A stretch of 64,000 nt of DNA from assembly GCA_965153355.1 (NCBI GenBank), contig OZ231126.1:46624001-46688000 (forward strand), written 5' to 3'. Source of the DNA: Flaccisagitta enflata (taxonomy: Eukaryota). Shown here piece after piece: positions 22,954 through 42,764 of the stretch (position 1 is its first letter; every line of letters starts with the position of its first letter). Below the pieces are notes generated by a model. That model ran no database searches, had not been told where the DNA came from, and saw only the letters and a list, made by a program, of their open reading frames with translations. The translations under genes and the position numbers were made by a program.

Positions 22954-23802
22954 TGTTACTGAGCAACCTCAGTATATATTTCTAATGCCCTATTATGCTC
23001 CTGCTTTAGCGTTCGCGCTGAGTCCTTGACTGCTTGCTTATGTCTTCTAATAAATACAGCGAAATCTTATCCAAACGAATTCTTTATTAGAAGAAGATAT
23101 CCAAAGCAACGTAGTTTGAACTGTAAAGGACAGATAATAATGGAATTTAGACAGAGACACAAAAGCTATATAGTTAGGCCAGATGCTTTAAGACTCTAAA
23201 AATGTAACATGAAAATGAATCTAATATGTAAAGGAGGCCCAAGTTACCTTGGTTATGCGCTGAGACGGTAAAGAAAAGTATCCAGTATTCTCCAAAATCA
23301 GAGGCAAAGTATGAGAGTAACAATCCAAATCAGTAAATCCGGAGCAAATAAATCGTAATAAATTCGCAGGAGAATCTATCGTAAATGAATAATGCGGAAG
23401 GGAATTTGGCGGCTCTCGACTAATTCTAAAAGTGGTCAACAGAGGGCGCTGAATTCCGCCGCCAAAATCGCCTAAACATAAGGCCCGCTCAAATCTACCG
23501 TAAACAAAAGGCCTCTTCGTAGGTAAAGCGAATTAAAGCAAAGGACGCGAATAAACCGAAACTAAACAGAGAATAAATCTATTCGGACAGACAATAATCA
23601 AATGGGACAGACATAAGGACAGTTCAGACAGACAAAGGACATCAAAATAATCATCAAAATATAAAATCAAAATAATCAACCTGAAAAGAAAAGATTAGAA
23701 ATACCCAAATACCTACCTGAAATATGAACCCAAATTCAATATATATAAACCAAAATAAATCAATACCAATAAGACATGGCCCCAAAACCTTGCTTCACGA
23801 CA
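22954..23802 (-). repeat. 3' LTR (849 bp)
   Basis: Direct repeat of 41918-42764; immediately preceded on the minus strand by the purine tract GGGGGGAG. Confidence 0.96.
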
Positions 23803-23810
23803 CTCCCCCC
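23803..23810 (-). other. Polypurine tract (plus-strand primer)
   Basis: Minus strand reads AAAACGGGGGGAG directly before the TG of the 3' LTR. Confidence 0.85.
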
Positions 23811-24439
23811 GTTTTGACTCAAATTACAATATGTTTTATGCCAATTTGGGGAAAAACTATAACGAAGTCTTGAAGCTCGGTTTTGGGCAATTTTATGTTA
23901 CACATTTGAGATGGAAAACACTGTAGTAAGAATCTTGAGGGATGTTTCTGTCGACGGCTTCACTGAGCTCCTCTGCTCATTCTTGTACAATTATAGATGT
24001 GCACTTATTAGAGTTTATTTGTTTCTGGTGTTAGTAAGTTTCAGGTGTGCACATTGGGTGGGGGGGGGGTGGGACAATTTCAATCTCAATTCTCCGTAGT
24101 ATCAACTCTCGTCGAGTTTCGTCGATGGTGATCGTGGGCACAAAATGTTTAGTCAGCGGTAGTCAGATGGAAAGTTTGTTAGTTGTAAGTGCCACGATCG
24201 AAGTAGATAATCGAGTGACCGCGTGCGCTTTCCGATTGTAAAGTGTAGTCGAACGAAAGTTTGTAAAATGTAAGTGCTACGGTCGAGAAGGAATCGCCCG
24301 TCGCCGAAGGTGAATTATAGTCCGATCGAAGTCGATGATGATTGCGGATTGCGTTCAAACCGCCACCGTACAATGTTCGTTCGTCGAATGAGCGCGGACT
24401 GACCAAGTCCGCCGAAGAAGTCGTATCGTTGAGTGGTCG

Positions 24440-24487
24440 CAGCCTGTGCCCCGCCGAAGCGGGTCCCATCCGGGCGCAAGCAGGCTG
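24440..24487 (-). repeat. Structured 44-nt motif, copy 1 of 3
   Basis: gcctgtgccccgccgaagcgggtcccatccgggcgcaagcaggc; also present at 27416-27459 and 31150-31193. Confidence 0.85.
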
Positions 24488-24549
24488 ACGTCGAAGAGGT
24501 CCATTCCATTCGTCACTACGTCGCCATCGTCGTTGACGTTGTTGTTCCG

Positions 24550-24672
24550 TTGTTGTTTCATTGTTGTTCTGTTGTTGTTTCATTGTTGTTCTGTTGTTAT
24601 CATTGTTGTTCTGTTGTTATCATTGTTGTTCTGTTGTTATCATTGTTGTTCTGTTGTTATCATTGTTGTTCA
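24550..24672. repeat. 20-bp minisatellite (cattgttgttctgttgttat)n
   Basis: Visible tandem array of about 5-6 units. Confidence 0.85.
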
Positions 24673-24747
24673 TTGTTTCTTATCGTTGTTGTGTTGTTGT
24701 CGTTTACATTGGAGGTCGCGGTGCTAGATCCGTTACAGGCGAACGGA

Positions 24748-26555
24748 TCATTGCCGACGACCACCGCTGTCGGAGTTGTCGAGGATGTAAGCGAAGAAGG
24801 TGTTGATGCGTTCCGTGGAGTTGTTGAAGCGTACATGATAGTCGTGAAGTCGTCGATTGCTGATGATACGCTGTCGTCCCCAGTAACAAATCAGCTCCAC
24901 TCTTTCGCGGACGAGCCTTTCGTAGCGATCTTCCCTGTTGACGCGCCTTTGGATGATTCTTCGGAGATGGAAGGCGGCGAAGGCGCGGTAAATTACGCGC
25001 CGATCGTTGCCGTGATAACGGCAGAGGTTAGATTCGAAGGTCATCATACCGGTACGGTCAATGTGGTAGATGTATCGGTCGAGAAGCAATCCCCAGTCGT
25101 TGGTGACGGACGAGTAGCGCCATTCCCCTTCGAGGACGACGAGCGGATCGCGTCGGACGCGCATTCCAAGACCTCTTTTCAAATTGAGCAACAAGAAAGA
25201 GTCCACCTTGAACCACGTCCATACGTCTATCGCGCGTGCGGCGATGCCTCCAGGCGGGGCCCAATATGTCGACGCGTCGTCGCTGTCGTCGTCGTCGTCG
25301 TCGTAGCATCTTGCTCCGTAGAGATGGCGAATACTTTGGACGAACGACACGAACCCGCGATAAGAATATTTGTCCACAAACGTTTTTAGGAACGGCGGCG
25401 CCATGTCCACCATGCGTTCGGTCGAGACGATGTGGACCTTCCATTCGAGATCGAGGATCCATTGGCGAATGCTGTCGCTGAACTCCGTCGCTTCACTTTC
25501 CCAAACTCGTACCGTCGGTCCGCTTCCGTAGAGGTTTCCCATGAAGACGACCTTCTTGTCGAAGCGGAGGACTCGTCGGACAAGTCGCTGCGTTTCCTCT
25601 GTTCCCCAGCGATGTACTAGATGACAATCCGGCAAGTGAGGATTGTAATAAGCGATCGTTTTAAAGGTAAGTTTATCGGAAAGAGGCATTTTAACTTTCA
25701 ATAGTCCACTCGGATTGATTTTCAAGTGCCTAAATTTGGTCAAGTACCAGTGAACATAATAATTATCATTGCGATCGAGAGTTGAGATTCAACAAGTAGT
25801 TTAATATTTAGTGAATGATTAGCAGTCTAGTGAATACAGTATGACCGATCTCACATCAAATAAGCGGTCCCAGAATCGTTGATGTCATATTAACAAGTCT
25901 GGAATTCATTGGCATCGAGTGAATGAATCGAGTGTCTATCTAACATCGAATGAATGAATCTAGAATCAACTTGACATCGAATAAATGAATCTAGAATCAA
26001 CTTGTTATCGAATGAATGAATCTAGAATCAACTTGACATCGAATGGATCCAGCAGGAGATTATTAGTGTTGAATGAATGATCAGTTCAATTTTGAATCAT
26101 TTTCGGATCGAGTCGAGTGAATGATTTTGAGTTCGTGAATGAATTTGTGAGTGGATAAGGCAACAATTGTCCGGTTGAGCAAAGCGTGATAGTTTTTAAT
26201 GTTTTTCTAACATCAACTCTCTGGAGAGTATGCGTTATTCGCCGCCGTCACTTTTCTTCGGGTAGCTAATCCGTCGTCGGTCTTCGGAGGCGCCAACGCA
26301 ATTCTCCCCCCGTCGCCTTCTTTCGCCCACACTCGTCAGCGGAGGATCCTGAGGACGATGGAGTTGAGGGTCAATATTAATATCTATCGTTTAACTATGT
26401 TTCATAGCGTTTATAACGCATTCAAAGAGGGTATCATCGTCACACTCTATCATCGATACGCTTTGCTTAACCATTCTTACCGATGATCTTTCATCGTTGC
26501 CATTCGTTCGCTGACTAGAATTGCTCCTTTCACCGAAGTCGACTATCGTCCCCAT
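24748..26555 (-). CDS. Accessory gene B: main exon 25616-24748, tentative upstream exons 26555-26481 and 26348-26252 (~346 aa, unknown function)
   Basis: The 331-aa ORF has globular, aromatic- and Arg-rich composition and an acceptor catctag|TA. The upstream exons are phase-compatible (TCG|gtaaga..cctcag|GAT; AAA|gtgacg), but the second donor is weak. Confidence 0.55.
25915..26045. repeat. ~31-bp tandem repeat (atcgaatgaatgaatctagaatcaacttgac)
   Basis: Three to four degenerate units visible. Confidence 0.75.
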
Positions 26556-26819
26556 TGTTCGAGATCGAGAAGAAAGTCACCACGGTTTTCGTCGCCAATC
26601 AATTGTTTCAATTCATCTCTATACATCGAGTTTTCTCGCATTCTCTTGGAATGCGTCGTCTGAGTTTTTAATCTCTCTGATCGAGTCTGTACATTTTGAA
26701 TCATCACATCTTCAATGAATCTGAGGAAAATGACCATTTTTACGGTCCGGTGTTATCATCAATATCATTTTTATCATCATCATCATTTTATCTTTATCCT
26801 CTTTTTTTTTTAAATTTGC

Positions 26820-27125
26820 GATATCATCGTCATCGGCATTGTACATTTAACAGCAGTAATGTAATCACAATCATTGTGCCTTTTTTCCTATCTGAACGAT
26901 GAGACTGAATCTGTCAGTCCCTCTGACCGGAAAAAATATAGCGCTGATTTTTAACCACGAAGGTAATCTAAATATACATATCGTCATCGGCATCATATAG
27001 CAAAGCAATATAATCACAATCATCGTGCCTTTTTCCCTATCTGAACGATGAGACTGAATTTGTCAGTCTTTCTGACCGGAAAAAATATAGCGCTGATTTT
27101 TAACCACGCAGGTAATCTAGACATA
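26820..27125. repeat. Tandem duplication of ~160 bp inside the accessory region
   Basis: atatcatcgtcatcggcat...gtgcctttt...ctatctgaacgatgagactgaat...ctgaccggaaaaaatatagcgctgatttttaaccacg..ggtaatcta occurs twice. Confidence 0.8.
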
Positions 27126-27129
27126 CATA

Positions 27130-27380
27130 CCGGCATCAGCCGGGGAAAAATATGTTTGGCCTAAGCCGCAAGAAACATTGGCCGAAGCCACCAGAATTAT
27201 CAGGACTAAGCCTGCCAAAAATAATAGGCCGTAGCCAGACAAGAAAATATCGGCCGGAGCCGCCTAAAAATCAGGTCTAAGCCTGTACTTAAAACTAAGG
27301 CCGAAGCCATCAAAATAATCGGCTAAAGCCGCCAAAAAATCAGGTCTAAGCCTGTACTTAAAATATTGAGCCGTAGCTCA
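27130..27380 (-). repeat. Array of ~11 mini-hairpins (GGC-UNNG-GCC type on the minus strand) with variable U-rich spacers
   Basis: On +: ccggcatcagccgg, ggcctaagcc, tggccgaagcca, caggactaagcctg, ggccgtagcc, cggccggagccg, caggtctaagcctg, ggccgaagcc, cggctaaagccg, caggtctaagcctg, tgagccgtagctca; period about 21-28 nt. Confidence 0.75.
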
Positions 27381-27412
27381 CAAGCATTAAATCAAAGATA
27401 AATCATGAGGGA

Positions 27413-27462
27413 TCCGCCTGTGCCCCGCCGAAGCGGGTCCCATCCAGGCGCAAGCAGGCGGA
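27413..27462 (-). repeat. Structured 44-nt motif, copy 2 of 3
   Basis: Same core with one substitution; closing stem extended by tcc/gga. Confidence 0.85.
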
Positions 27463-27663
27463 CCCCTAAAAAAAAAAAATTTACGAGTATGATTGGATGC
27501 CATTAGGGCTGAAAACAGGCCGATTAGTGATTTGACGATGGATACAAGCCGATTGATGACGATGGATCAAATCTGATGATTGTATGTACATGATGATGAT
27601 GCTTCGAGGAGTGAAGTGCGGTGCTGCCGGCTTCAGGCGAGCCGGATCTGCCGCTACTTCTGC

Positions 27664-30600
27664 TCACTCAAAGTTCTTTCGCAGGTCATAGTAATCCCGC
27701 TTCCTCATGACGACGGCTGGCGGGTCGTGGCCGGGGGGGCGATGGACGTGGCCGCAGGCGCGGATTCCCTCCCAGTTGATGACCATGTGTTCTCCGATCG
27801 CCTTTTCCCATTCCCGAAGTCGGTCGTGGTGGCGGGCGACCCAGGAGGAGGCGTTGCAGACGATGAAGGCGCCTCTCGACCACACGCCGCAGGATTCTCC
27901 GGGAAGCGGTTCCGTGATGACCGGACCTGAAGCGAAGATGGTTCATCTAAATCTAACTGTTCTCCTAAGTCGAGTAAACTTAGGCTTAGATCTAGTTCTA
28001 AGTCTAACGGGTCAAAGCCTAATTCTTCTTCTAGATCTAACTCGACTAGTTCCTCTCTGTCTGTTCTAGGTTTTTCATTTGGTTCTGTCTGATCCTCAAT
28101 CGCTTCTAGGGTGGTATCTTCGTCATCGTTCTCTTCGAGATTCCCTTTTTTTAACTGATACAATTGATTGACTCTTTTTCTCTTTAATTTCCTTTTCTGC
28201 TGTCCTTCGTTCTCTTTCTCGTTTTTGTTCTTATCTTTGTTCTTTTCTTTGTTCTTTGCTTTGTTCTTTTCTTTGTTCTTTTCTTTGTTCTTTTCTTTGT
28301 TCTTCTCCTTCTTGTCCTCTGACGGCTCTATCGTCAACTTCTTCCGTTTTTTCTCTTCTTTTTCACCGTCTGAATTGTTTCTTTTTCTTTTCTGTTTTTC
28401 CTCGTCTGTTTTTTCTGTTTTTTCTTCGTCGGTTTTTTCTGTTTTTTCTTCATCGAGGAACTCGATTCTTCTTCTCTTTGACTCGATGTTTTCTTCTGCT
28501 TCTTCCTCATTTTTCTTTAGTTCTTCCGCCTTTCGTTTTTCTTCGAGTTCTTTTTCATATTTTTCTAGTTCTTCTTCAAAATTTCTAACCGGGCTGGCTG
28601 AGGCTGGATCAACTATTTGGACGGTATACCTTTTGCGGGGCAGAGGTAACCTCGGGAGAGAACGAGCGATTGCGTTTGTCTCCCGGATTTTCCTTGCCAG
28701 GGCAGTGTTGTGTGTTTTCTGCCATTCAATGTTTCTTTTGTTTGTTTCTTCTTTAGCTAGTGACTGTCTCAGATATATAATTCTTCCCTCTGTTTTTTCT
28801 ACCTCTTCATCTAGTTTCTTAGAGTGAGTAGCTAGCTGGTAGTTGTCAAGAAGTTTGCCTGACTTGGTGTAAATGGCCCCTGAATCGGCCTCCTGATCAA
28901 ATGGCCCCAAAGGGGAGATGTGGGTAAACTCGACATTGGGTCTGGTTAAGCCTGACTCTTCAATGGGTTTACCGGAGACGGGTAATGCGGCTCGACGGGC
29001 GTCTTCGGCAGCCTGTCGTCGGTCAGCGGCGTCGAGGGCGGTTCGGCGGCGGGCTGATCGCTTGCGATCCTCCTCCGCCAACCGTTTCGCCTGCTCGGAT
29101 TTGACGGACATGTTGGTGAAGTACTCGCTGGGGCGGTCGAAGTCGAGCTGTCGGCCGTCCCAGTTTTCCGCCGTCTTGACTTGAGCCTTTCGCCGGTGTG
29201 GATTGCAGCTGAGGATCTCGGAAGTCCGGTGTCCTTCGCGAAACGCGTAGTCGATGGTGGACGCCATTTGCTGCGGATTCAGACTTCCGTAAGGTCTCAA
29301 GGCCGCATCTTGCTGCAGAGCGATGTGGACTCGTCGGTCGAACTCGATCACCTTCTCGTCGACTTCTTTCTCGTTCATTCCGCGACCCAGCAAGGCTTGT
29401 CGGACGATGCCGCGATAAACATTCTGATTGGTTACATGAGGCAAAAAGGGGGGGGGGGGTTGTAAACATAAGTTGCTTCCCTGTCTCCTATTGCTCAGTT
29501 ACAAGTGTCCAAACAGGTGAAACATAATTCCAAGGTGATTTATAAACTGTTTTCCCGAATCCTACCACTAGTAAGCATGGTATTAAATTCATAGTTACTA
29601 GAAGAAAAGATCAGTAACAAATTGATATCCTAGGCTCACCCTAATCTTTCTGTCTTGAAGTTTGAGGGTGAACGCTTTATCGCGACGCGCTTGAGAGAGC
29701 CATTTGGGGACGCTCCACCCATGGGATCGCCAGAACTGAATGACTTCTGGGCCGATCTTCTTCTGCCACCGCTCGTTTAGCATCTCGGCTTCGGCGAGGG
29801 TCTTGCACGGCCTCACCTCAGAAAACATCGCGTTCTGTTCATCATGGGTGAGGGCCGCACGTTGGGACGGAGTGTGAGTGGGATGGGCTTCAAGTCCTCG
29901 GAACTCGAGAACTTTCTCCAGTTTGTCGATGTCGTCGTATTGCTCCCATTCTTCCTCGTCGATGTCATCCTCTGGATTGTTGCTGAACACTTGTTTGGCA
30001 ACGTCAACCAAGTCGGCTCGATCGTGGGCGCGATAGGAGATTTCCTTTCTTAGCTGTTTTCCTACAAGGGGAATTTGAGCCAATATTATTTGGTGTCATC
30101 ACCGTCCCCATGATAGAGTGAGAGAGAGAGAGAGAGCAGCGGAGGCGGCGTGGCTGTGCAAGGCTCGTCTGTAGACCTTGCCCGCTCCATGCTTCCTCCG
30201 CTGCTGATGATAAGACAACATTGACAGTGATAATCAGGCAGGTTGATTGTTTTGAATTAGTTATTACTAAACTATGCTAACCATTACTAAACTCTCGATT
30301 TCTAGCTATGCTAGCCATTACTAAACTCTCGATCTTTATCAGTTTTGTTGACTGAATTTGTTACCTGCTCGATCGATTTTGCAGGCATGCCTCTCGATGA
30401 AGTCCAGCGATTCAGGGATGTGGACATACACGGCTGGGAGCAAGACGTTAAATGTGTCCGCGATCGCCTTCCACTCTTCTTCAATGACCTCTTCGTCCTC
30501 TCTTCCCTTCTCCCTCTCTTCTTCCCTGTACCTTTCTCCCCCCGTTATCTTTGCCTCTTCCATCGTTTCCTTCCAATCTTTCTTCCTCTCCAACGCCTCT

Positions 30601-32036
30601 ATTCTGTCCCTAATACCTTGAACTTTCTCCCTTTCCCTCTTCTCCTGCTCTTCCTCACCCTTCTGCTTCTGCCTCATCCTTTCCGCTTCCTTCTGTCTTT
30701 CTCTTTCCGGCTTGTCTTCGGCGAATCTCTGCCTTCCTTCCTTTTCCGCTCTCTCCTTCGCCGCGTCGCGCAGCACGTGTCGTCGATGGGCGATGGCGTG
30801 GAATTTCTCCTCCACTTTCTTCAGTCTTAACTTATTCTCCTCCGCCTCCTTTTCTTCTTCAGGCAGAGCTGCCAACGCCGCCGATTCTTCCCTCATTCTC
30901 TTCAGTTTGTTTCTCCTTTTACGCTGGTTTCGGGTCAGCGGAGGAGGCATGGAGCGGGCGAGGGCTGCAGACGAGCCCTGCACAGCCACGCCTCCTCCAC
31001 TGCCCTCCACCGGCGGCCGAGGGGATGAGGAGCAAAGAGGAGGAGGAAGCGGCGGTGGCTCGACGGTCGACGAGGCGCTGGCGTCGGGTAGCCGGTTCAA
31101 CTTCTCCCGTAAGTCTTTAATGAAGACGTCGCATGGTCGAGAGGGCACAGCCTGTGCCCCGCCGAAGCGGGTCCCGTCCGGGCGCAAGCAGGCTGGCGTC
31201 TCGTTGGGAGAAGGGCAGCGCGGCGTCGAGATGGAAATGGGCGTCGCTGCGTCGATGCATCCCGCCAACATGGTGGACGCCAAAGAGACGTCCGTGGTCG
31301 ACGCGAGGGATGAAGTCGACGACGCCGGCGACGGATCAGGGGGAGGCATCATGAACGGCTGGAGATCGTGGCGGCGTTGAAGGGGGCGTCCTTTGGAGTA
31401 AGAGGAAAGGTTTTAGAGGCAAAAATATACATCGGGTGTAAGGCACGCGAGAAAATCGTCAACACAGTGGCTTACAAGAAAGATGACATCGAAAACGCAC
31501 TGAGAACAGGGTTCATATCGCTAATTATTCTTAAAGATTGCTTAACATGAGTGAATTGTGATTTATTAGGTGAAATGAGTGATTTCCTTGATCGTTAGGT
31601 TACAGGCTCGAATGACTCAGACACTGTGATTGTGGAAGGATCACATATTGATTAGTGGGAGTGACTTCTCACCTTTATGACGGAATGAGGGCACTTGACG
31701 CTGTGGCCGTGGTGGCGAATTGCGGCCCGTCAAGGCTTTGTGGCGGGGCACGCGGGGGGCTTTGAAGCCGTCCAAGGTTTGAGGCGGGAACATCACCGGT
31801 CTTTTCGCTTTGACCACCGGTTCCGCCGGCACTTCTTCCTCCGCTTCCGCCTCCTCGCCCGCGACGCTCTCCTTCAGCCAATCGTCCACCTGCTGGCGCT
31901 TATTCTCCCGTTGCTGTCGATGGTACGACCGCTCTTCATCTTGCTTCCTTTCGCTCTGGAATCGGTTGAAGCGGACTTCGTCCTCTTCGTCGTCGCTGAC
32001 CTGTCGGTCATGCATCGATCGATTTGGAGACGACAT
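27664..32036 (-). CDS. Accessory gene A: spliced, ~841-aa charged/proline-rich protein of unknown function. Exons 32036-31673, 31390-30365, 30061-29640, 29423-28973, 27926-27664; the last intron may be retained, giving a stop at 27705.
   Basis: Separate ORF-track ORFs (131, 337, 161, 579, 73 aa) join in frame at GT-AG sites with matching phases: AAG|gtgaga..ccaaag|GA, CAG|gtaaca..ttgtag|GA, AGG|gtgagc..aatcag|AAT, CCG|gtaaac..cttcag|GT. Exons are GC/CpG-rich and introns more AT-rich. No recognisable domain. Confidence 0.7.
31148..31195 (-). repeat. Structured 44-nt motif, copy 3 of 3 (inside a coding exon of accessory gene A)
   Basis: Same core with one loop substitution; translated as PACLRPDGTRFGGAQA. 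Confidence 0.85.
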
Positions 32037-32470
32037 GACGACAATAGCGGCGAAGGATAATCGAATTTCGCTTTCCGAAGATAATTCAGTTCAAAAATGG
32101 TTAACAATTTCTTCGTGGACGTATCGCACGGAATACACTCGTGACAATCACAGAGTGGGGAAGATAATTTCTTACTGAACCTGAGCACGAGGAAGCAAAC
32201 GAGTTTGTAATAGTTTATGTATAACAGTGGCGAGAAGAGAGAGGAAATAATGCAGCAATTCAATAATATCTATCCAACAATGTCTATTATGGTCAGTTGC
32301 AATCTCCGTCAACAGGCAATATCTGTTCTAACTGTCTAAGTTAACAAAAAATGCCAAAATTTATATCGAGCTTTTGATAATAATGGCATGTATCTAGATC
32401 GATCCCCCTCGTCATGGGATTTCACATGAGGGGTCGAAGTTGAAGGTGCGCCCAGCCGTTCTCTCAAAAT

Positions 32471-32699
32471 ATGCAAATTAGTGAACCGGAAGTGACAGCG
32501 GAAGTCGGACCGGAAGTGACGCGTTTCCGGCCACGCCTACTCCGCAGTCGAGGAAAGGGAGATTCTCATCGACGCTCTCCTCTCCTCCTCCCTGATTCTC
32601 GACTTCGACGCCATCTTGGATTACTCCGTCGACGGATTGATTTTCTCCTCCTCGCTCCCGGATCCGAAAGTGCTCGTCTTATTCGAGCTTTCTGATTGG
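32471..32699. promoter_or_regulatory. Candidate internal promoter/enhancer (octamer, tandem ETS sites, YY1, CCAAT)
   Basis: ATGCAAAT 32471-32478; CCGGAAGTG at 32486 and 32510, GCGGAAGT at ~32498, TTCCGG at 32525; CGCCATCTT 32609-32617; ATTGG 32695-32699; CpG-rich; lies between the pol stop and accessory gene A. Confidence 0.5.
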
Positions 32700-33314
32700 T
32701 TGACACGGCTTAGTCGAAATTGATTCTCCAAGCGTATTATCAAGAAAGTGATATCATGGGCTATTACATATGCGTTTCGTATATATGATTCAAAAAAGGG
32801 AAGAACTATAGTTTGAGCGCGTCTACTGGCCTCAGTGAACTACCATCGCTACTGTCGGCTATAGTGAATGACTAATTATGTAATTTTAATGTTCAGACAC
32901 AGATAACCAACTACCGGCAGTAACGAATATCTAAATAGTTCTATCTAACGATGAGGCAAAGATGAAACGTGTTGTTAGTTGTAACAAATGACTGAATGGT
33001 ACACTTTTCATTTGTCAGTTATGAATGACAGTGAAAACCCGGCAATAACGAATGGTTTTGGGTTACGTTTTGCGATGTCTTTAGTAATTAGTTGTACTAA
33101 TATTATTAACGTTCTCCAGTACAACTTAAATGAATTTTAAAAATTGACATCGGACTTATCCAGGGTTAGTAGTCTACAGAGTCTGCTATAGTGAACATTG
33201 TCGAATTCCTAAATGATTGTTGTCGTCGGGGACAGGATGAATGTTGTAACAAGTTTTTTTTAGAGCTTCGATCCTGTTTTCTCCCCCCGTGGAGGACGAA
33301 TTTATAATTCAAGT

Positions 33315-36300
33315 TCACATCTCCAGCAGGATCAAGCTTCTAATGGCGCGGTCGACGATGCGGCCATTGCTTAATCTCACTAGAAAGCGTCGTCCGTGAC
33401 TTTCGTCGGAATTGATGATGCGGGTTATCCGGCCCATAGGCCAATCCTCGCGCGCAGTTGCGATGTCCTCGACCAGGACAAGGTCCCCGGGTTTCACGAC
33501 TGTTGATGACTGCTTCGAACGTTTCAACAGCTGTTGGAGGTAGTTGGCGCGGAATTGCTCCCAAAAGGCGTCGAGCAGGTATTGACTGCAGCGGAATCCA
33601 TGGCGTAGAACCGACGTTTTCTCCGCCTGAGGAGGAAGAATGTGATTCATGGTTGAGGTAAACAAGTATGGGTACAGGAAATGAGCTGGTGTGAGTGCCA
33701 TGTCATCGTCCACATCTGCTGATACTGGGGTTAGCGGACGCCTATTCATTATCGCACTGGCTCCAGACAGAAGCGTCTCGAAATCCTCTAGATCTACATT
33801 CTTGCTACCTATCACTGACCTCAATAATTTCTTGCTAAGCCCTACCAACCTTTCCCAACTACCACCGTAGCTGCCACAATAAGCTGGGCCAAATGTCCAG
33901 GTAAGTTCTAACTTATCTAGTTCCTCACTGAGATTTTCTTTTTTCCAAGCTGCAACTGACTCTTTAATTTCCCTATCTGCACCTCGAAAATTCGTGCCAT
34001 TGTCTGAGAAAATGTGTTTGAGTGCGGGAAACTGGGAATGTATTTTCACCAAAGAGTTAATGATGCTTGAAGTGGTCATGTCTCTAAGTGGGACTAGAGT
34101 GATTGCTCGGGTGGACATGCAACACGCAATCAAGACAAATTGTTTGCGGGTGCCGCGCCCTGTGTGGCGCAAATGGAATGGGCCCAGGCAGTCTAGTGCA
34201 CAGTGGTAGAATGGGGGTACTATGGCCATCCTTTCTGCTGGTAAGTTTCCTTCCTTTTGGGTGGCTTTGTTTTTGGACAGTCTTTGACAGGTGATGCATT
34301 TACTTATGACACTCCGGACTGAATTTTTACCCCCTAGGATGAAATATTTGCCCCTCAGCAGTAGATGGGTTTGCATTATGGTGCAATGAAATTTCTTGTA
34401 ATGGGCTTGGTGGTAATGTCTGATGATGGATTGGACTATCTCATGTGAGCTATTGGGCAGGATAATAGGGAATCTGTGGTTGTAAGGGAGATATTCAGCT
34501 TTAGCTATTCTCCCCCCTGCCCGCATCACATTCGACTCATCCAAAAATGGGCATAGTTTGGCCAACTTAGAATTTTTGATATTCATGTCTTGAATGGAAT
34601 TTGGTGAAAATATTCCCAGTTTGATCAGGCTGAGTATTTCTCGCTCAAATTCTACATTCTGAAGGGCCCTAACTAGCATATTTTCTGCATCTTCTCTTTC
34701 TGAGTCACTTAGGTGAATGATGTACTTATCTGGTTTTTCTATTTTTGTTCTCAGCCTAGTACTCATTACACCCTGTTGTTTGTTTTTAACCCTTTCTCTT
34801 AATTTCAAAATCACACGCTTTATTATCGCTACCCGGCGAATCTTTGTTCTCCATTCTGAGAGCTTACTTGTTGCCTTCAGTGGCCATGGTGCGAAGTCGT
34901 GATTTTGTGCCTCCACGATCGGTTCTTCCGTTGACCCGTAAGCGGCGATGATATTGAGAGCGGCGACGTCAGCCACCAATTCCGCCGGATTTTTGTTTGT
35001 CGGATTGGGTCGAACCGGGGGCCACTGTGAAAGGGGTAAAGAGAGAAAGGGCGGGCCTTGATGAAAAATATGCCATTTTTTGGTATCATTGGCTTTAATT
35101 CCTTCGGACGCGAGGTCCGCAGGATTCATTAAGGTGGGGCAATGGCGCCATTCAGATAAAGGTGACAATGATCTGATACACTTGACGCGGAAATTTTCAA
35201 ACGTTCTGAACCTTTTCGTAAAATTATTTAGCCACCCTAAAACAGTGAGTGAATCCGAAAAGATAAAGATGTCCTCAAATTCTTCCCCTGCATCCCTGAC
35301 TAACGTATCTCTCCATTGGGCGGCCACTTTGGCCGCGCACAATTCTAGCCTGGGGATGCTGTCTGAATGTGGGATAGCCCCCTTAGTTGGGTTAAGCATC
35401 ATATTGGTCGGCACGACATGCGCCTTACCGACCAAAAAGGAAACACTAATTTTATCTTCAGCTCCTCTCTGGTAACGGCGTAGGTAACTACACATCCCGT
35501 AGCCGTCCTTTGAGGCGTCACAAAAAAGAACTAGCTGACAGACTGAATGTTCCATACCCAAGGGGTTGGTCCACCTGCTTATCTTAATTTTCTTTAAATG
35601 GACTATTGTCTGTTGCCATTTAACTACGTCATTTTTCATCTCAGGGGTGAGGGCAGTTTTCCAGGGAATAGTGTCAGAGCTAATTTTTTGAAACAATAGC
35701 TTTCCTGGTAAAAGCCAGGGGCTTACCAACCCTATTGGGTCATACACTGACGCCACAAAGCTAAGTAGGTCTCGCTTAGTAACTATTTCCCTGTCTGGTT
35801 TGGTCCCTACCCTGACATTCATGACATCTTCTTCGAATGAGTAGCCTAGACCTAATACCTTGTCGCTTAGATCGGACTCATTCAGAAATTCTTTAGCACA
35901 ACTTTCTGTGTACCCGTTATTTAGGATACTCACCAATTCCGACGGTGATAGTTGAGCTTCTTGTTCTTCATCATCTGGATCCCCATCTTCATCTTCATCT
36001 GGATCCGCATCTTCCACTGGGGGCGTCGACGGGGTTGGGGGAGGTGCGCGGTGCTCCCCCAGACCACAGGCGGGCTGGCGCGTGCCGCGCCCTCCCGGAC
36101 ATCCGTGACCGCCCTTCGATGGTTCTGCATTTGCGCTTTGGCCCTTTGCCGTCTCGACTTGTGCCGGAGTAGCGACCTCCACGTTGGCGTTATCTCTGTC
36201 AAGAGGGGTAAGGGAAAGAGAGGATGGTAAATCAAGGTCGGGAAAATTCGACTTCCACTTGCATATATCCATGCCCCCTAATTTAAGCACTGCAGTTATT

Positions 36301-37757
36301 TCTGATTTTATCCTCCTAGCTGTCTCTTTATCATCTGTACTCTCTAGCAAGTCATCCACGTACATGGCGTAGAGTAACGCCAAGTACGTGTCTACACTAA
36401 TCTTGTCCTTATGTGTTTCTGCGTGAAGCTTGAGGATAAAATTGGAGATGGTGGGTGATGAAGTCACGCCGAACATATGGCGCAAACTTTCAATCATTAC
36501 CACCTTCTCCATGGTCTCGTCAGACCACCAAGGATAGCGCAAGGCTGAGCGATCCCTAGGGTCTAACAATATCTGAAAAAAAAAGTTTGTGATATCCGCC
36601 GAAATGGTGTATCTTTTTCGGCGGAATCGCAAAATTACTTTTATTAGGCCATTCAAAATGTCAGGACCGCTAAACAAGTATTTATTCAAAAAATGAGGAC
36701 CGACTCTGGAAGCGGCGTCCTGACAAATCCGGAATTTTCCGGGTTTGTCAGGTTTAACTACAATATGATTTGGCAAATAACAGACAACATTTTCGGGGGG
36801 GGCGTCTAATGTGTCTATTATCCGCGCATGCCCCGCTTCCAGAGTCATCCTCATCTGTTTAAAGGATCCCTCTTTGAGGGTCGGGTTTAGTCTAAATTTG
36901 CGTTCCAGTTTTGAATGGCGGTTCATGGTCATTTTGTAAAAATCTATGGTTTTGAACAGGTCAGCGGTGGGTTGGCGCCCTAAACGCCATGGCATGGTGA
37001 TTTCCCACCTTCCTTCTTCTTCTACAAATCTAGCTGATTCCTGCATCATCTTTAAACTCTGTTCATCTTCAACTGATCTATGTGTCATCTCTTGAGGAAA
37101 TAGCTCGAAGTCCCTACAGATGAAATCCTGTCTGAACATTCTATTTATCATATTTGCCAGGGTGATGGTTTCAGCACTAATGGTCATGATGTTGTTAGCC
37201 TGAATATCATTTTCATCATCTTCCTCTTCATTGTCATTTAAAATTCTGGGGCCTATAATCGCATGGCCAAATTTTGTTCCCAGTGCTAAGGGCTCGTCAT
37301 GTTTGCCCAGGCGGTTATCTCCCGTGCAAAAATAATATGCGTACTTAGCATCAAGCAACAGATTAATTTCTTTATCTTCTAATTCACATATTTTCAGATC
37401 CTTTAAATGCTCAAAACAACTCAATTCGCTTTGGGTGGGGGGTTTTTCTGTTTCTGTAGATAATTGGCTACCAATAAGGGCGTTTTCTACTTTTATTTCA
37501 AAGGTGTTACTCAAATTAGTAACTTTGAAGGAAGTGATTTGTCTTGTAGCATTTGAGGAACTGTCAAAGGTGTTTAATTTAACTGAAATTGATTTTCTGG
37601 GTGCATTTAACTCATTGCAAAGTGACTCAGTTACGGCGCTTGTGTTAGCGCCGGTATCTATGAGTGCGTAAGTGGGGCGTCTTTTACCATTTACATGAAT
37701 CATCACAGGTACAATGGGCCTGGTGGCACCGTGACGCCCCACGAACGCAGCCCTCAG
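33315..37757 (-). CDS. pol: Bel/Pao Pol: aspartic protease, reverse transcriptase, RNase H, integrase; in frame with gag after a single TGA
   Basis: YALIDTGANTS (PR); KFRICQDAAS, ADITNFFFQI, FGVTSSP, YVDDLL (RT); LFCDAS, IPRLELCAA, FSDSLTVLGW, NPADLAS (Pao RNase H); CITCQR, LDCLGP, SDNGTNF, GGSWERLV (IN); FWEQF...PGDLVLV...WPMGRI (DUF5641-like). No internal stops. Confidence 0.97.
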   Translation of the reverse strand: MRAAFVGRHGATRPIVPVMIHVNGKRRPTYALIDTGANTSAVTESLCNELNAPRKSISVKLNTFDSSSNATRQITSFKVTNLSNTFEIKVENALIGSQLSTETEKPPTQSELSCFEHLKDLKICELEDKEINLLLDAKYAYYFCTGDNRLGKHDEPLALGTKFGHAIIGPRILNDNEEEDDENDIQANNIMTISAETITLANMINRMFRQDFICRDFELFPQEMTHRSVEDEQSLKMMQESARFVEEEGRWEITMPWRLGRQPTADLFKTIDFYKMTMNRHSKLERKFRLNPTLKEGSFKQMRMTLEAGHARIIDTLDAPPENVVCYLPNHIVVKPDKPGKFRICQDAASRVGPHFLNKYLFSGPDILNGLIKVILRFRRKRYTISADITNFFFQILLDPRDRSALRYPWWSDETMEKVVMIESLRHMFGVTSSPTISNFILKLHAETHKDKISVDTYLALLYAMYVDDLLESTDDKETARRIKSEITAVLKLGGMDICKWKSNFPDLDLPSSLSLTPLDRDNANVEVATPAQVETAKGQSANAEPSKGGHGCPGGRGTRQPACGLGEHRAPPPTPSTPPVEDADPDEDEDGDPDDEEQEAQLSPSELVSILNNGYTESCAKEFLNESDLSDKVLGLGYSFEEDVMNVRVGTKPDREIVTKRDLLSFVASVYDPIGLVSPWLLPGKLLFQKISSDTIPWKTALTPEMKNDVVKWQQTIVHLKKIKISRWTNPLGMEHSVCQLVLFCDASKDGYGMCSYLRRYQRGAEDKISVSFLVGKAHVVPTNMMLNPTKGAIPHSDSIPRLELCAAKVAAQWRDTLVRDAGEEFEDIFIFSDSLTVLGWLNNFTKRFRTFENFRVKCIRSLSPLSEWRHCPTLMNPADLASEGIKANDTKKWHIFHQGPPFLSLPLSQWPPVRPNPTNKNPAELVADVAALNIIAAYGSTEEPIVEAQNHDFAPWPLKATSKLSEWRTKIRRVAIIKRVILKLRERVKNKQQGVMSTRLRTKIEKPDKYIIHLSDSEREDAENMLVRALQNVEFEREILSLIKLGIFSPNSIQDMNIKNSKLAKLCPFLDESNVMRAGGRIAKAEYLPYNHRFPIILPNSSHEIVQSIIRHYHQAHYKKFHCTIMQTHLLLRGKYFILGGKNSVRSVISKCITCQRLSKNKATQKEGNLPAERMAIVPPFYHCALDCLGPFHLRHTGRGTRKQFVLIACCMSTRAITLVPLRDMTTSSIINSLVKIHSQFPALKHIFSDNGTNFRGADREIKESVAAWKKENLSEELDKLELTWTFGPAYCGSYGGSWERLVGLSKKLLRSVIGSKNVDLEDFETLLSGASAIMNRRPLTPVSADVDDDMALTPAHFLYPYLFTSTMNHILPPQAEKTSVLRHGFRCSQYLLDAFWEQFRANYLQQLLKRSKQSSTVVKPGDLVLVEDIATAREDWPMGRITRIINSDESHGRRFLVRLSNGRIVDRAIRSLILLEM

Positions 37758-40700
37758 TCAGTCAGTATCGTCACCGCCATCTGAAGCTTCATCTGACTCG
37801 CTATCTTGATTCTGTTCTGTCTGTCTTTTGTAATCCCGATGTAATAGCGAGTGATGAAACCCCCCTGTACAATGATCGCACTCAATCCCTGAGTCACAGT
37901 TCTTTGCAATGTGACCATGCTGAAAACATCTGTGGCATAGTCCTCTGGTTTTTAGAACTAAAAATCTCCCATACTGGTTTTTAGCTAGGAACTCTTTACA
38001 GTTGGTAAGCTCATGGAACTTGGACCGGTTGCAGACGGGGCACGACCAATTACCTGTAGTCTGTTTGGAAGTGGCTGCAGATTGGTTGTTGTTCCCTGAC
38101 GCCGAAGAGTCAGTGTTGGCGCCCTTTCTTTGATTGTTGGCGGCGTCGTTTCCGCCTGAGGGGCGCTTGCCGGTTCCATAAGTCTGAGATTGTTGTTTTT
38201 GTTGCGTCTCGAGTTTGGCGGCCGCCACCTGTGCAGCCTTTTGTTGCTGTTGTTTGACCGAAGTTTGCGACGCCGCGGGAGTGTTGTCTGAAGGTGAGGT
38301 ACTGTTGTTGCCGGGAGTAGAGTCATTTCCTCCTTGCGGCTTTCCTCTCCCTCTCCCTCGCTTTCCTCCTCCTCCTCTGAAATTGTTGGTTGTTTCGGGG
38401 GCGCCGTTGGTTGATGTTGGTGACGCCGCTATAGCGTCAATTTTCATTGTCCTGGCGTCTTTCTTATTTTTGGGCGTCTCTTTGGGACCTCCAATCAACT
38501 CTCGTTCGTCCGAGATGAAATTTTGCGACCTGAGGAAAGTTAGGAAATCATCAAAACGGGGTTCAGGTTCCGCATTTTCAGGTTCAACACCCATGACCTG
38601 TTTACCCCTTTCGACTGCCCATCGATTTTTTACAAATGGAAGTTTTTTCCTAATTATCTTGTTTATAGTGTCAGCGTTATCAAAGGAATTAGCCCTTCCT
38701 GAGGCTTTAGCCTTAGTGACCTCCCCTTCTAGGTTGATTCTAAACTTTTTAAAGGCTGCTGTATCCTCCTGTTTAATAGCTGCTCCTGTTAAGAGACGAT
38801 CTATTATGGCTTGAGCTGACCGGGCATGATACCCATACTCCTGTTTGAGGTGACGGATTGCTTTTTGTAGATTCTCTTTGGGGTCCCCCTCTCCCTCATA
38901 GAGTTCACATATTTTAGCGGCGTCGCCGCTAAAATAGTGTTTTAATTCATAACACTGTTCCTGGGGGGCTACTTTTGATTCCTCAGTAACTCTCTTAAAT
39001 CTAAGCAGGGTGGATTCGAAATCTACATTATGATTCCCGTCAAACCTCTGATCGATGGGCAGTCGGTTGGACTTCAAATAATCCCTAGCATTACCAGCAG
39101 TTTGAATTAATAGTAACTGTACAGCAGCATCTTTAGCCGGGTCTGGCACACCATTAGCAGCACCTGACGAACTGTTAACTGTGTTCGATTGATTGCTAAC
39201 TGTGTTTGACTGACTGTTAACTGTGCCTGGCTGACTGTTAACTACATTTGAGGGGTTGTTAACCGCACCTGCTGATGATTGTGAGGAGTCATTTTGGTTT
39301 CCAGGACTGGTAACCGTCGATTGGTAGTCTTCGTCGTCGTCGGATAATGGCGTCCGATCTAATGGCGTTGGGTTCGTTGCGACGGGTGGAGGATTTGTTG
39401 CTGCCGGGAGCGAGGGCGCCGCCGCGGGAATCGAGTTCGCCGCCGCAGCTGATGTAGGACTCACTCCCGCTGGAATCGGGTTTGCCGGCGCGGTCATCGC
39501 CTGTGGGACCGAATTAGATTGAGGATTAATCGGTCCAACCGGATTTACAGTCGGGTAAATGGGCAATGAGGGCGGGGGCATTTGGAACCTTGGGTCAAAA
39601 TAAGGCCATACAAACTGAGGGTTAGGCCAGGGAAATGTTTGACCTGATGGGGGCATCTGAATGACTGGGGGATTCACAGGGCTGGTACAGGCTACAGGCG
39701 AGCCTGCCGCTGCCGTGACTCCTCCAGCCGGGTGGAAAAGAGGGTTAGACTGAGGTGCCCTGGGGTTAATTGGATGGTTAATAGGCCCATTTATTCCTGA
39801 TTGGGCTCCGCGCCTAACAGTACTAGCAGTGATGGTTGAACTGCCTGAATCGGATGAATGATGATGATCGGGCTGACCCGACCTGACTTGACCTGACCTG
39901 ACCCGTCCTGACCTTACCTGTTCAGGCTGACCGGTTTGGGTCTGATTGGGGGCTGATGTTTGAATGTTCTGATTTTGACCTTGAATTGGAGCTGGGTAAG
40001 TCTGATCGGGGTCATGGTTAAATTGACTCTGAGGGGTATTGTCTTGCCTTATAACTGGGGTGATAGATTGATTACCGGAATGACCCACTTGAGGCTGATT
40101 ATTTTGGTCAATGGGAATCGAGGGATTAGAGGATTGATTCCTGTCATGCCTAGAGGATCGAGATCGAGGTGGTCTGTCATTACGGTCCGTATTTCTCGAG
40201 CAAGAGGAAATTGAGTCGGTCGGTCTGACCGCTGCCTGATTAGGGTCATTTTGAGTATCTAACCAGGAATCTGTACGGGTTGGACCGACTGGTGCTAAGG
40301 CTGCTCCACCGAGTGGATGTTGGAGCAGATCGCTTAGTTCGCCCACGGCAGCGTTTACATGTCTGCCTATTGACTGCAAGCTGGTATTATGTGCTTGTTC
40401 AGATATCCTAGTCATCTCCTCCTCATATCTTTGAACCCTTCTTTCAAGCCTACCCTTCTTTCTGTGAATTGAGTCATACCTAACACGTAGAATCGAGGTG
40501 GCATTTCCGGCGTTGGCGGTGGCCGGCGGGCTCTCGTCCATAGCGGGCTGATCGAAGTTAGTCCGATTAGAGGCCGTTGATGAGGAGACTAACGAGGTAT
40601 GGTCGGTCATCCCGGATACTAAGGATGTTGCATTAGATCGAGATGGAATTTCGCGGCGTCCGGCGCTGTTATTGCTTTCCGGCGGCGCCCTTTCGCGCGT

Positions 40701-41450
40701 CGTTTCATCGTCTATCACGGACGGCGCCCTCGACGTCTCACTGAAGGCTATGAGGGCTAGTTGAGGTTGAGGCGCCGTTCCAGCGGCCGCCGGCGTCGTC
40801 GCGATGGGCGCTGTAGATGATGCTTCCGGCGCCGGGAGTGCAGGGCGCGCGGGCGGCGCGGGAAGCGCCGGGGAAGCGGTTGGTCGTGTCGGTGCGGATA
40901 GTAACGGCGGCGGCAGTGGTCCTATGAACGGCTCCCTCGGCGGAAGCGGACCTACAGCCGGCGGCGTCGTTTCTAGTAGGCTGATCCGATTGAGCGGCGC
41001 TACTCGCAAATCGAGGGGAAACGGAGGAAGGACTGGTCCAGCGTCTCGATTGATCCTGTTAAGGAATGTACCAGCGATTTGTGGGTCAATTTCTATGACT
41101 GGTGGAAATTCAAAAGGTGGATGGGAGTCTAGTGACATCTGCATCCGACCAATTATACTGATCAAACTATCCCTGTCTGCAATGATGGTAAATTTATCAC
41201 AGATCTCAGAAATGGCTAACTTTTGTACTGTTAACTGAGACCTAAGGTCATTGGCCTGAACCTTAAATTCCTGGTCTGGATGGTCTCGGCCCATGCCAAA
41301 GGCTTGAACGAATTTTTGAATAAGGGCCGTAGACTCTTTTATCAGCTTACGGGCGTGACGACTATCAAAACGGGCAGCAACGTCATAATACATGGCACAC
41401 CCCGGGGGTAGGCCCCTGGGCGCGTCAGGGGGTAAGCCCCCTTCTGCCAT
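37758..41450 (-). CDS. gag: Bel/Pao Gag-like protein, 1230 aa
   Basis: Long ORF with a DUF1759-like core (FDGN...ELKHYFSGDAAKI...LKQEYG) and the C-terminal Cys/His cluster CPVC..H...C / CHRCFQHGHIAKNC / CDHCTGGFHHSLLH typical of Bel/Pao; long P/S/Q/N low-complexity N-terminal half. Confidence 0.92.
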   Translation of the reverse strand: MAEGGLPPDAPRGLPPGCAMYYDVAARFDSRHARKLIKESTALIQKFVQAFGMGRDHPDQEFKVQANDLRSQLTVQKLAISEICDKFTIIADRDSLISIIGRMQMSLDSHPPFEFPPVIEIDPQIAGTFLNRINRDAGPVLPPFPLDLRVAPLNRISLLETTPPAVGPLPPREPFIGPLPPPLLSAPTRPTASPALPAPPARPALPAPEASSTAPIATTPAAAGTAPQPQLALIAFSETSRAPSVIDDETTRERAPPESNNSAGRREIPSRSNATSLVSGMTDHTSLVSSSTASNRTNFDQPAMDESPPATANAGNATSILRVRYDSIHRKKGRLERRVQRYEEEMTRISEQAHNTSLQSIGRHVNAAVGELSDLLQHPLGGAALAPVGPTRTDSWLDTQNDPNQAAVRPTDSISSCSRNTDRNDRPPRSRSSRHDRNQSSNPSIPIDQNNQPQVGHSGNQSITPVIRQDNTPQSQFNHDPDQTYPAPIQGQNQNIQTSAPNQTQTGQPEQVRSGRVRSGQVRSGQPDHHHSSDSGSSTITASTVRRGAQSGINGPINHPINPRAPQSNPLFHPAGGVTAAAGSPVACTSPVNPPVIQMPPSGQTFPWPNPQFVWPYFDPRFQMPPPSLPIYPTVNPVGPINPQSNSVPQAMTAPANPIPAGVSPTSAAAANSIPAAAPSLPAATNPPPVATNPTPLDRTPLSDDDEDYQSTVTSPGNQNDSSQSSAGAVNNPSNVVNSQPGTVNSQSNTVSNQSNTVNSSSGAANGVPDPAKDAAVQLLLIQTAGNARDYLKSNRLPIDQRFDGNHNVDFESTLLRFKRVTEESKVAPQEQCYELKHYFSGDAAKICELYEGEGDPKENLQKAIRHLKQEYGYHARSAQAIIDRLLTGAAIKQEDTAAFKKFRINLEGEVTKAKASGRANSFDNADTINKIIRKKLPFVKNRWAVERGKQVMGVEPENAEPEPRFDDFLTFLRSQNFISDERELIGGPKETPKNKKDARTMKIDAIAASPTSTNGAPETTNNFRGGGGKRGRGRGKPQGGNDSTPGNNSTSPSDNTPAASQTSVKQQQQKAAQVAAAKLETQQKQQSQTYGTGKRPSGGNDAANNQRKGANTDSSASGNNNQSAATSKQTTGNWSCPVCNRSKFHELTNCKEFLAKNQYGRFLVLKTRGLCHRCFQHGHIAKNCDSGIECDHCTGGFHHSLLHRDYKRQTEQNQDSESDEASDGGDDTD

Positions 41451-41908
41451 GATAATTTCTTTTTAACTAAAGTCGATCAGGGGGTTTAGATCCTTAAATA
41501 GTTCAGGCCAAAGATCTTGGGTCAAGAAGGCTCGCGTACCGAGGCCTAACTGACGCCTAAGATACTAAATTCTGTTCTTCCTGGACACGGCGCCCCTCCT
41601 AAGGGATGGGCGCGAGGACTAATTATCGGACGGGCGTGACCCTTAGATGAACAAGTTTCTAACAACGCAGTTTCTCTTATAAATCCTATCTGACGGCCGA
41701 AGCTCTTCCCGGAGGAAAAGCACGGAACGTAATTTAACGAGAATTAGCAATGGACCGGCGCCCGTCGTGAGAGGGGCGCGGTCCTAAATTCGGATCGGTA
41801 AATAAATCTGAGAATTGTACTCGTCGAATACTCACCCACGGAGACGAAGTCTTTGACGTTTCCAAACGCAATTAAGCAAGAGCATAAAAAGAGCGCGCGA
41901 TATCAACA

Positions 41909-41917
41909 AGTTCAAAC
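41909..41917 (-). other. Non-canonical primer-binding site (candidate self-priming site)
   Basis: Minus strand after the 5' LTR reads GTTTGAACT with no TGG; it is complementary to LTR 42076-42084 (minus AGTTCAAAC). Confidence 0.5.
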
Positions 41918-42764
41918 TGTTACTGAGCAACCTCAGTATATATTTCTAATGCCCTATTATGCTCCTGCTTTAGCGTTCGCGCTGAGTCCTTGACTGCTTG
42001 CTTGTCTTCTAATAAATACAGCGAAATCTTATCCAAACGAATTCTTTATTAGAAGAAGATATCCAAAGCAACGTAGTTTGAACTGTAAAGGACAGATAAT
42101 AATGGAATTTAGACAGAGACACAAAAGCTATATAGTTAGGCCAGATGCTTTAAGACTCTAAAAATGTAACATGAAAATGAATCTAATATGTAAAGGAGGC
42201 CCAAGTTACCTTGGTTATGCGCTGAGACGGTAAAGAAAAGTATCCAGTATTCTCCAAAATCAGAGGCAAAGTATGAGAGTAACAATCCAAATCAGTAAAT
42301 CCGGAGCAAATAAATCGTAATAAATTCGCAGGAGAATCTATCGTAAATGAATAATGCGGAAGGGAATTTGGCGGCTCTCGACTAATTCTAAAAGTGGTCA
42401 ACAGAGGGCGCTGAATTCCGCCGCCAAAATCGCCTAAACATAAGGCCCGCTCAAATCTACCGTAAACAAAAGGCCTCTTCGTAGGTAAAGCGAATTAAAG
42501 CAAAGGACGCGAATAAACCGAAACTAAACAGAGAATAAATCTATTCGGACAGACAATAATCAAATGGGACAGACATAAGGACAGTTCAGACAGACAAAGG
42601 ACATCAAAATAATCATCAAAATATCAAATCAAAATAATCAACCTGAAAAGAAAAGATTAGAAATACCCAAATACCTACCTGAAATATGAACCCAAATTCA
42701 ATATATATAAACCAAAATAAATCAATACCAATAAGACATGGCCCCAAAACCTTGCTTCACGACA
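41918..42764 (-). repeat. 5' LTR (847 bp)
   Basis: Begins tgttactgagc and ends cttcacgaca on +; matches 22954-23802 apart from one 2-bp indel and one substitution seen by eye; lies upstream of gag on the minus strand. Confidence 0.96.

Follow-up and report, generated by a model that had tools for sequence, protein, structure and literature searches.

A repeated three-way-junction motif in the accessory region of a Bel/Pao retrotransposon as a candidate cis-acting RNA element

A 64,000-nucleotide (nt) stretch of contig OZ231126.1 of Flaccisagitta enflata (assembly GCA_965153355.1, positions 46,624,001 to 46,688,000; hereafter the window) contains a long terminal repeat (LTR) retrotransposon of the Bel/Pao group, and this element carries three copies of a 44-nt motif that folds as a three-way junction on the element's sense strand, which is the minus strand of the window. 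We tentatively propose that the motif is a lineage-specific, cis-acting structured RNA module of the sense transcripts of this element family, in which it would serve as a repeated binding site, most like the direct repeats (DRs) of Rous sarcoma virus (RSV). An earlier note on the same DNA had described the three copies and had suggested a functional cis-acting RNA element, with a response element, a packaging or dimerisation signal and a ribozyme among the candidates. That general suggestion was supported in part, by the confinement of the motif to the element within the window, the sense orientation of the copies, the strand features typical of RNA and the pairing of the flanks, whereas the covariation on which it also drew proved to be weak.

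The motif copies and their fold

The three copies are located 3' of pol on the sense (minus) strand of the element, in a 9.6-kb accessory region that holds a four-exon gene and a further open reading frame (ORF), ORF3. One copy lies in coding sequence (CDS) and two follow stop codons, in agreement with the earlier note.
24442..24485, minus strand, motif copy 1 (the reference), 262 nt beyond the ORF3 stop, with 639 nt between it and the 3' LTR
27416..27459, minus strand, motif copy 2, with the change C14>U, 245 nt 3' of the stop of the four-exon gene
31150..31193, minus strand, motif copy 3, with the change U18>C, inside exon 2 of the four-exon gene, with its first base at CDS nt 562 (codon 188, phase 0)

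Searching the 64 kb for the 44-mer with up to three mismatches returned exactly these three sites, at the positions already given in the earlier note, with 0, 1 and 1 mismatches, and 100 dinucleotide shuffles gave no match. Half-motif searches with up to two mismatches found nothing beyond the three copies. When the three copies with two flank pairs were made into a covariance model, and this was run without filters on both strands of the 64 kb, again these sites alone were found, scoring 80-82 bits on the minus strand versus 13-15 bits on the plus strand. The copies were all in the sense orientation in the accessory region, and none was present in the other ~54 kb, of which ~44 kb lies outside the element. 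The exact core of the motif was absent from the JGI, IMG/VR and GTDB collections, which were searched with a 26-mer in viral contigs and with a 22-mer in metagenome and genome contigs. The 44-nt unit has sharp borders, is rich in GC and is nearly a palindrome, and its length is not a multiple of three.

On the minus strand, the minimum free energy structure was the same three-way junction in all three copies, and it was identical to the fold drawn in the earlier note, while the plus strand gave three different folds. The junction consists of a closing stem, GCCUG(CU)UGC/GCACAGGC, and two hairpins, CCC-GGAU-GGG (hairpin 1) and CCCGC-UUCG-GCGGG (hairpin 2). The closing stem contains 5+3 pairs with a CU bulge; this 2-nt bulge is the sole internal loop, and the strands at the junction are 0-1 nt long. 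The substitution in copy 2 makes a U-G pair on the minus strand and a C-A mismatch on the plus strand, and the substitution in copy 3 falls in the GGAU loop, both as previously described. This core U-G pair and a G-U pair in the stem extension of copy 2 are mismatches on the opposite strand.

Sequence outside the 44-mer prolongs the closing stem with bases that differ among the copies and are nevertheless paired, which bore out another observation of the earlier note. The extension begins with CA/UG in copies 1 and 3, and with CC/GG followed by six more pairs in copy 2. The extended helices span 24438-24490 in copy 1, 27408-27467 in copy 2 (eight extra pairs) and 31138-31203 in copy 3. When 20-nt flanks were included (84 nt), the stability z-score was -4.07 for copy 2 and -1.82 for copy 3. 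In a separate flank test, the core fold was forced, and the energy added by the real flanks was compared with that added by 1500 random flank pairs drawn from the element, with these results:
Copy 2 flanks: -19.7 kcal/mol added; fraction of random pairs at or below this value, 0.002
Copy 3 flanks: -14.5 kcal/mol added; fraction of random pairs at or below this value, 0.011
Copy 1 flanks: -7.3 kcal/mol added; fraction of random pairs at or below this value, 0.21

The pairing of the flanks is stronger evidence for the fold than the covariation of the core. Among 18 pairs examined for covariation, 16 never varied, one varied on one side and one varied on both sides (the first flank pair, A-U to C-G). 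All cells were paired across the copies (54/54), and the RNAalifold covariation term was -0.66. The core covariation is thus compatible with the fold and proves little.

Loops of the UUCG type gave a further strand signal, one that does not depend on the motif. All seven cUNCGg hairpins with a stem of at least 4 bp in the 64 kb were on the minus strand inside the element, and none was on the plus strand. Three of the seven belong to the motif copies, three lie in a tandem-repeat array 3' of copy 2, and one is in the 5' untranslated region (UTR).
27120..27400, minus strand, mini-hairpin array of the form GGC-NNNN-GCC, with at least seven hairpins in tandem repeats just 3' of copy 2
The loops of the array are UUUA, UUCG, UCCG, UACG, UUCG, UUAG and UGAU. 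The 361 nt around the array folded with -130.1 kcal/mol in the sense direction (z -3.62), compared with -100.2 kcal/mol in the antisense direction. The number of repeats differs among members of the family, as seen from joints at 27193-27318 in contigs of two public sequencing runs, X1 and X2.

Some features near the copies were recorded separately. A U12 tract (27468-27479, minus strand; on the plus strand, A12 after the hairpin) directly adjoins the extended hairpin of copy 2 on its 5' side, and copies 1 and 3 have none. No AATAAA or ATTAAA was found at a consistent distance from the copies, copy 3 alone having an ATTAAA that starts 29 nt 3' of it, and a role of the motif in 3'-end formation was dropped since the poly(A) signals had no consistent position. 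In the 5' UTR, CCCAUCC (41604-41610, minus strand) is complementary to GGAUGGG of hairpin 1 and lies within a local GCGCCC...GGGCGC hairpin; a 7-mer complementarity of this kind in ~470 nt may be due to chance.

Conservation in a relative and competing explanations

The proposal of the earlier note depended on the motif being kept in related elements. The exon-2 product has a protein relative, P0011, which is 63% identical and covers the motif site. P0011 represents one subfamily and is available as protein only, and it was therefore back-translated into degenerate bases and aligned to the DNA of the element. The motif was found at the same site in this one relative: 31 of the 34 determined positions match, with no gap in the motif of the element and one extra base in P0011, and one of the three mismatches is the base found in copies 1 and 2. 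In the flanks, 27 of 34 positions match on the 5' side, which also has 16 gapped positions, and 39 of 47 match on the 3' side. P0011 uses another reading frame for the 5' two-thirds of the motif (QPACARMG vs PACLRPDG), the peptides being CARMGAAW vs CLRPDGTRF, and QPACARMG is also the reading of copy 1 in that frame. The same peptide occupied the motif site in all 11 cluster members that cover it (15 listed). When the extra base was placed in the loop of hairpin 2, the 16 core pairs of P0011 comprised 7 forced and 9 possible pairs, and none was excluded. Since the bases persist while the peptides differ, it is the bases and not the peptide that appear to be conserved. The alignment points to copy 3 being old, part of the gene and conserved as nucleic acid.

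Several observations weigh against a functional RNA module. The covariation is not significant, as 175 of 500 shuffles reached the same score, because only two substitutions and one double change were available; the strand-specific covariation claimed earlier was therefore overstated, although the sense-strand fold and the U-G wobble behind it held. The 44-mers alone are no more stable than shuffles (z -1.2 to -1.5). In P0011, a single subfamily represented by protein only, conservation of the motif is not significantly above that of the coding flanks (31/34 vs 66/81), and hairpin 2 differs from that of all three copies, with an enlarged loop and a first pair changed from C-G to G-N, so the sequence of the motif is not rigidly fixed. 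One copy sits in a coding exon, an odd location for a UTR-type signal. Precisely at the motif edge, 24442, the sequence of one DNA contig from run X2 gives way to unrelated letters, which do not occur in the window; the motif thus occurs in at least one other setting, either a variant of the family or another locus. A polyA RNA run of the same organism (X13; 1824 million letters read, ~6/100 of the run) showed no transcript: the element received 65 reads, all partial, in 2 of 30 bins, namely the bin with the GAC repeat of ORF3 and 39386-40017 at a depth of 0.17. None of the public runs listed as containing the stretch is an RNA run. The near-identity of the three copies could, moreover, result from concerted evolution instead of selection.

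This last point leads to the possibility that the copies are functionless leftovers from the assembly of the accessory region by duplication or template switching, their cores having been homogenised by gene conversion or by strand transfer between direct repeats during reverse transcription (RT). Copies 1 and 3 share 43 of the 44 bases of the core and 21 of the 28 that follow it on the 3' side, and homology beyond the core is what duplicated segments would show; the flanks of copy 2 have no similarity to those of copies 1 and 3. The departure of hairpin 2 in P0011 from all three copies also fits homogenisation within lineages. Rearranged members of the family are common. Contigs of public sequencing runs, which come from marine metagenomes and from one organism, show that the family has a high copy number there. 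The contig depth in runs X1 and X2 was ~2300-4300 at the 3' end, ~1000-1400 between motif copies 1 and 2, ~180-500 across exons 2-3 and 1300-2900 in gag-pol; run X1 considered by itself had ~180-1400 in the accessory region vs 1300-2900 in gag-pol, with many joints. This uneven depth along 23586-32433 means that most family members lack parts of the accessory region or differ in them. The cores of copies 1 and 3 are alike while the neighbouring sequence is drifting, so something keeps the core alike, a point in favour of the RNA module. It would, however, be unusual for conversion tracts at three sites to end at the very same 44 bases. Conversion would also leave unexplained why the unrelated flanks of copies 2 and 3 are paired and why the features typical of RNA are all on the sense strand. 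We consider this explanation rather unlikely; if the motif were such a by-product of recombination, it would be of local interest only.

A palindromic mini-repeat of the host, resembling miniature inverted-repeat transposable elements or repetitive extragenic palindromic sequences, might instead have landed three times in the element. Like these repeats, which often follow genes, the motif is short, GC-rich and hairpin-forming with sharp borders, and the X2 contig that joins its edge to foreign letters also counts for such an origin. The window argues against this origin in that its ~44 kb of non-element DNA has no copy and that all three copies share one orientation. An insert of 44 nt, which is not a multiple of three, would also have to be accommodated in the open frame that contains copy 3, and the presence of the motif at the same site in the 63%-identical relative indicates that this copy is old and belongs to the gene. 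Depth in the bins containing the motif did not exceed that of their neighbours, but bins 632 nt wide exclude only a very large extra copy number. Taken together, a host mini-repeat is unlikely.

The motif could also act at the level of DNA, either as a site for a transcription or insulator factor or as a recombination site that bounds gene modules. The copies do roughly bound the accessory modules, being inside the first gene, after the first gene and after ORF3, and repeated protein-binding sites are known within LTR elements, for example the Su(Hw) sites of gypsy. A double-stranded site, however, has no need of complementary flanks, of pairs that form only as G-U or of a UUCG loop specific to one strand, and we regard a DNA-level unit as improbable.

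Two of the more specific roles offered in the earlier note found no support. For a new small self-cleaving ribozyme that processes the RNA of the element at three places, one could cite the three-way-junction shape and the small ribozymes of other retroelements (hammerhead, hepatitis delta virus-like and twister), which are likewise small multi-helix RNAs within transcripts. The motif, in contrast, has junction strands of 0-1 nt and a single 2-nt bulge, and with almost no unpaired conserved bases it has no unpaired catalytic core. Cleavage within exon 2 would, in addition, destroy the mRNA. Rfam 15 gave no match in the whole window at gathering thresholds, self-cleaving ribozymes included, and at E <=10 around copies 1 and 2 only chance-level matches appeared (RsmY, Fibro-purF, mir-214 and snR161, with 10-12 bits vs thresholds of 50-67). 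A tRNA scan of the whole window found no gene and made no tRNA-like call for the motif. We consider a ribozyme highly improbable. As to dimerisation or packaging, neither loop of the motif is self-complementary, and the 3' exonic or UTR sequence that contains the copies is common to spliced and unspliced RNAs, which argues against such a signal and makes it unlikely.

The host element and its accessory genes

The window, which is rich in microsatellites, contains at 22954-42764 one intact, recently inserted 19.8-kb Bel/Pao LTR retrotransposon, a type of element confined to animals. Its main features are as follows.
22954..23802, minus strand, 3' LTR, 849 bp, TG..CA, 99.65% identical to the 5' LTR
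24748..25689, minus strand, ORF3, 313 aa, conserved, matching no known family
32036-31673, 31390-30365, 30061-29640 and 29423-27705, minus strand, exons of the four-exon accessory gene model, with three GT..AG introns
33315..37757, minus strand, pol ORF, 1480 codons, with Pao Peptidase_A17 (4.5e-37), RVT_1, an Integrase_H2C2 zinc-binding domain and DUF5641
37758..41462, minus strand, gag-like ORF, 1234 codons from stop to stop, with weak DUF1759 and CCHC zinc-knuckle (zf-CCHC) matches in its last third
41918..42764, minus strand, 5' LTR, found by self-comparison of the window

The direct repeat pair (22954-23802 and 41918-42764) was recognised by the same self-comparison. Together with the TG..CA termini of the LTR, the Pao aspartic peptidase, reverse transcriptase and integrase in one pol, the weak zinc-knuckle matches of gag and the CTCTC, within a CT microsatellite, that flanks both ends of the element, it identifies an intact and young Bel/Pao element whose sense strand is the minus strand. 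The gag-like ORF has an N-terminal extension of ~800 aa, the gag-type matches being confined to the last third. The element is unusual in its length, in its recent insertion and in having, besides an accessory gene with introns, a second accessory ORF that is conserved.

When the four exons were joined, the frames fitted and gave a CDS of 3531 nt with an ATG start and no internal stop. The 1176-aa product is charged and of low complexity, and Pfam returned nothing credible for any of the accessory peptides. Intron 3 is missing exactly from a DNA contig of run X2, which skips 29424-29639; the skipped segment ends in CT..AC on the plus strand and therefore in GT..AG in the sense direction. Such a contig implies that a spliced RNA of the family was copied back into DNA by RT. 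With three sense-strand GT..AG introns in the element and a DNA copy that lacks one, spliced and unspliced RNAs would both occur and would both be reverse-transcribable. Near the 3' end of the gene, the last ~80 codons of exon 4 appear to be non-coding in the main frame (27664-27990, minus strand). A possible 53-nt GT..AG intron (~27978-27926) leads into a frame with a Cys/His-containing tail and a TGA at 27666-27664, and the switch of frame could mean that this copy has a frameshift or that the gene has a fifth exon. With the N-terminal part of the exon-2 ORF as query, a short-fragment search gave 43 candidates, none significant, and a HMMER search of its 134 aa against 1.84 billion representatives gave no hit.

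ORF3 has relatives in public assemblies at 98, 79, 75, 44 and 39% identity, all of which share conserved blocks, including the invariant APPFLKTF and KVDS.LLL.LKRGLG, and it is therefore a real gene. Pfam gave no match to it and the protein atlas no usable hit. An AlphaFold2 model from six sequences had a mean predicted local distance difference test score of 44.7, which is too poor for a structure search. Against metagenome contigs, 502 pattern matches were obtained and none was confirmed as a relative. One match in viral contigs, L001, was spurious, as it lies antisense to a 2338-aa phage-like ORF and scored 7.9 bits with an E value of 4.3. The poly-Asp run of ORF3 comes from a GAC microsatellite that draws unrelated RNA and DNA reads.

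Proposed role and comparison with known systems

An element that carries three introns through an RNA intermediate would have an evident need for a signal acting on its unspliced RNA. As a working model, the motif RNA would be made in the cell and would fold there as the junction, a compact structure with an ultrastable cUUCGg hairpin cap placed on a helix whose outer part is free in sequence. The three copies in the accessory 3' third would provide a repeated binding site for one trans-acting factor, which may be a protein supplied by the host or one encoded by the element. By comparison with the RSV DRs and with the Mason-Pfizer monkey virus (MPMV) constitutive transport element (CTE), this factor may act post-transcriptionally on intron-containing RNAs, at the level of export, stability or translation. 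Cis-acting signals that manage unspliced versus spliced RNA have been well studied in vertebrate retroviruses, and to our knowledge they have hardly been described for invertebrate LTR retrotransposons, a point at which our literature searches were not aimed. Should the motif be such a post-transcriptional signal, its small size and the ease of mutating it would make it a tool for studying how giant elements keep their introns and accessory genes through an RNA intermediate, and it would add a new structured RNA motif.

A more specific version of this proposal is an export system similar to that of Rev and the Rev response element (RRE), in which the element's own 1176-aa accessory protein would bind the junctions as its response elements. 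Among the relatives of the exon-2 product, the short stretch with the highest conservation, PLTRNQRKR.NK, is rich in arginine and lysine and invariant in 4/4 sequences, and exon 4 encodes an acidic, leucine-rich stretch, LDLELDLSLSLLDL. We look on this version as a long shot. If it were true, a Bel/Pao element of a marine invertebrate would keep three introns in its genomic RNA by such means, and post-transcriptional control in the style of complex retroviruses would have arisen outside Retroviridae.

In its architecture, the motif differs from the best-known retroviral export elements. The CTE is a long hairpin whose two internal loops mirror each other and bind NXF1, and the RRE is several hundred nt long. 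The motif, by contrast, is a 44-nt junction whose single 2-nt bulge does not provide the mirrored internal loops of a CTE. The common ground is in the task: structured RNAs of the MPMV CTE and RRE type let intron-containing retroviral RNA exit the nucleus (PMC3856414).

The closest likeness is to the src-flanking DRs of RSV. These are conserved and are described as acting in cis on unspliced RNA, with effects on its cytoplasmic accumulation and stability, on Gag expression and on packaging (PMC3856414). The DRs are 115 nt long, occur in avian retroviruses and are required in at least one copy for replication, whereas the motif is a 44-nt three-way junction that is present three times, once in a coding exon, in a Bel/Pao element. 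The two are likened by their placement. In each case, short direct repeats are found in the 3' portion of a retroelement, the DRs being located around an accessory gene and the motif copies within and after accessory genes, and the motif copies bracket these genes in an element that would need its introns kept in the genomic RNA.

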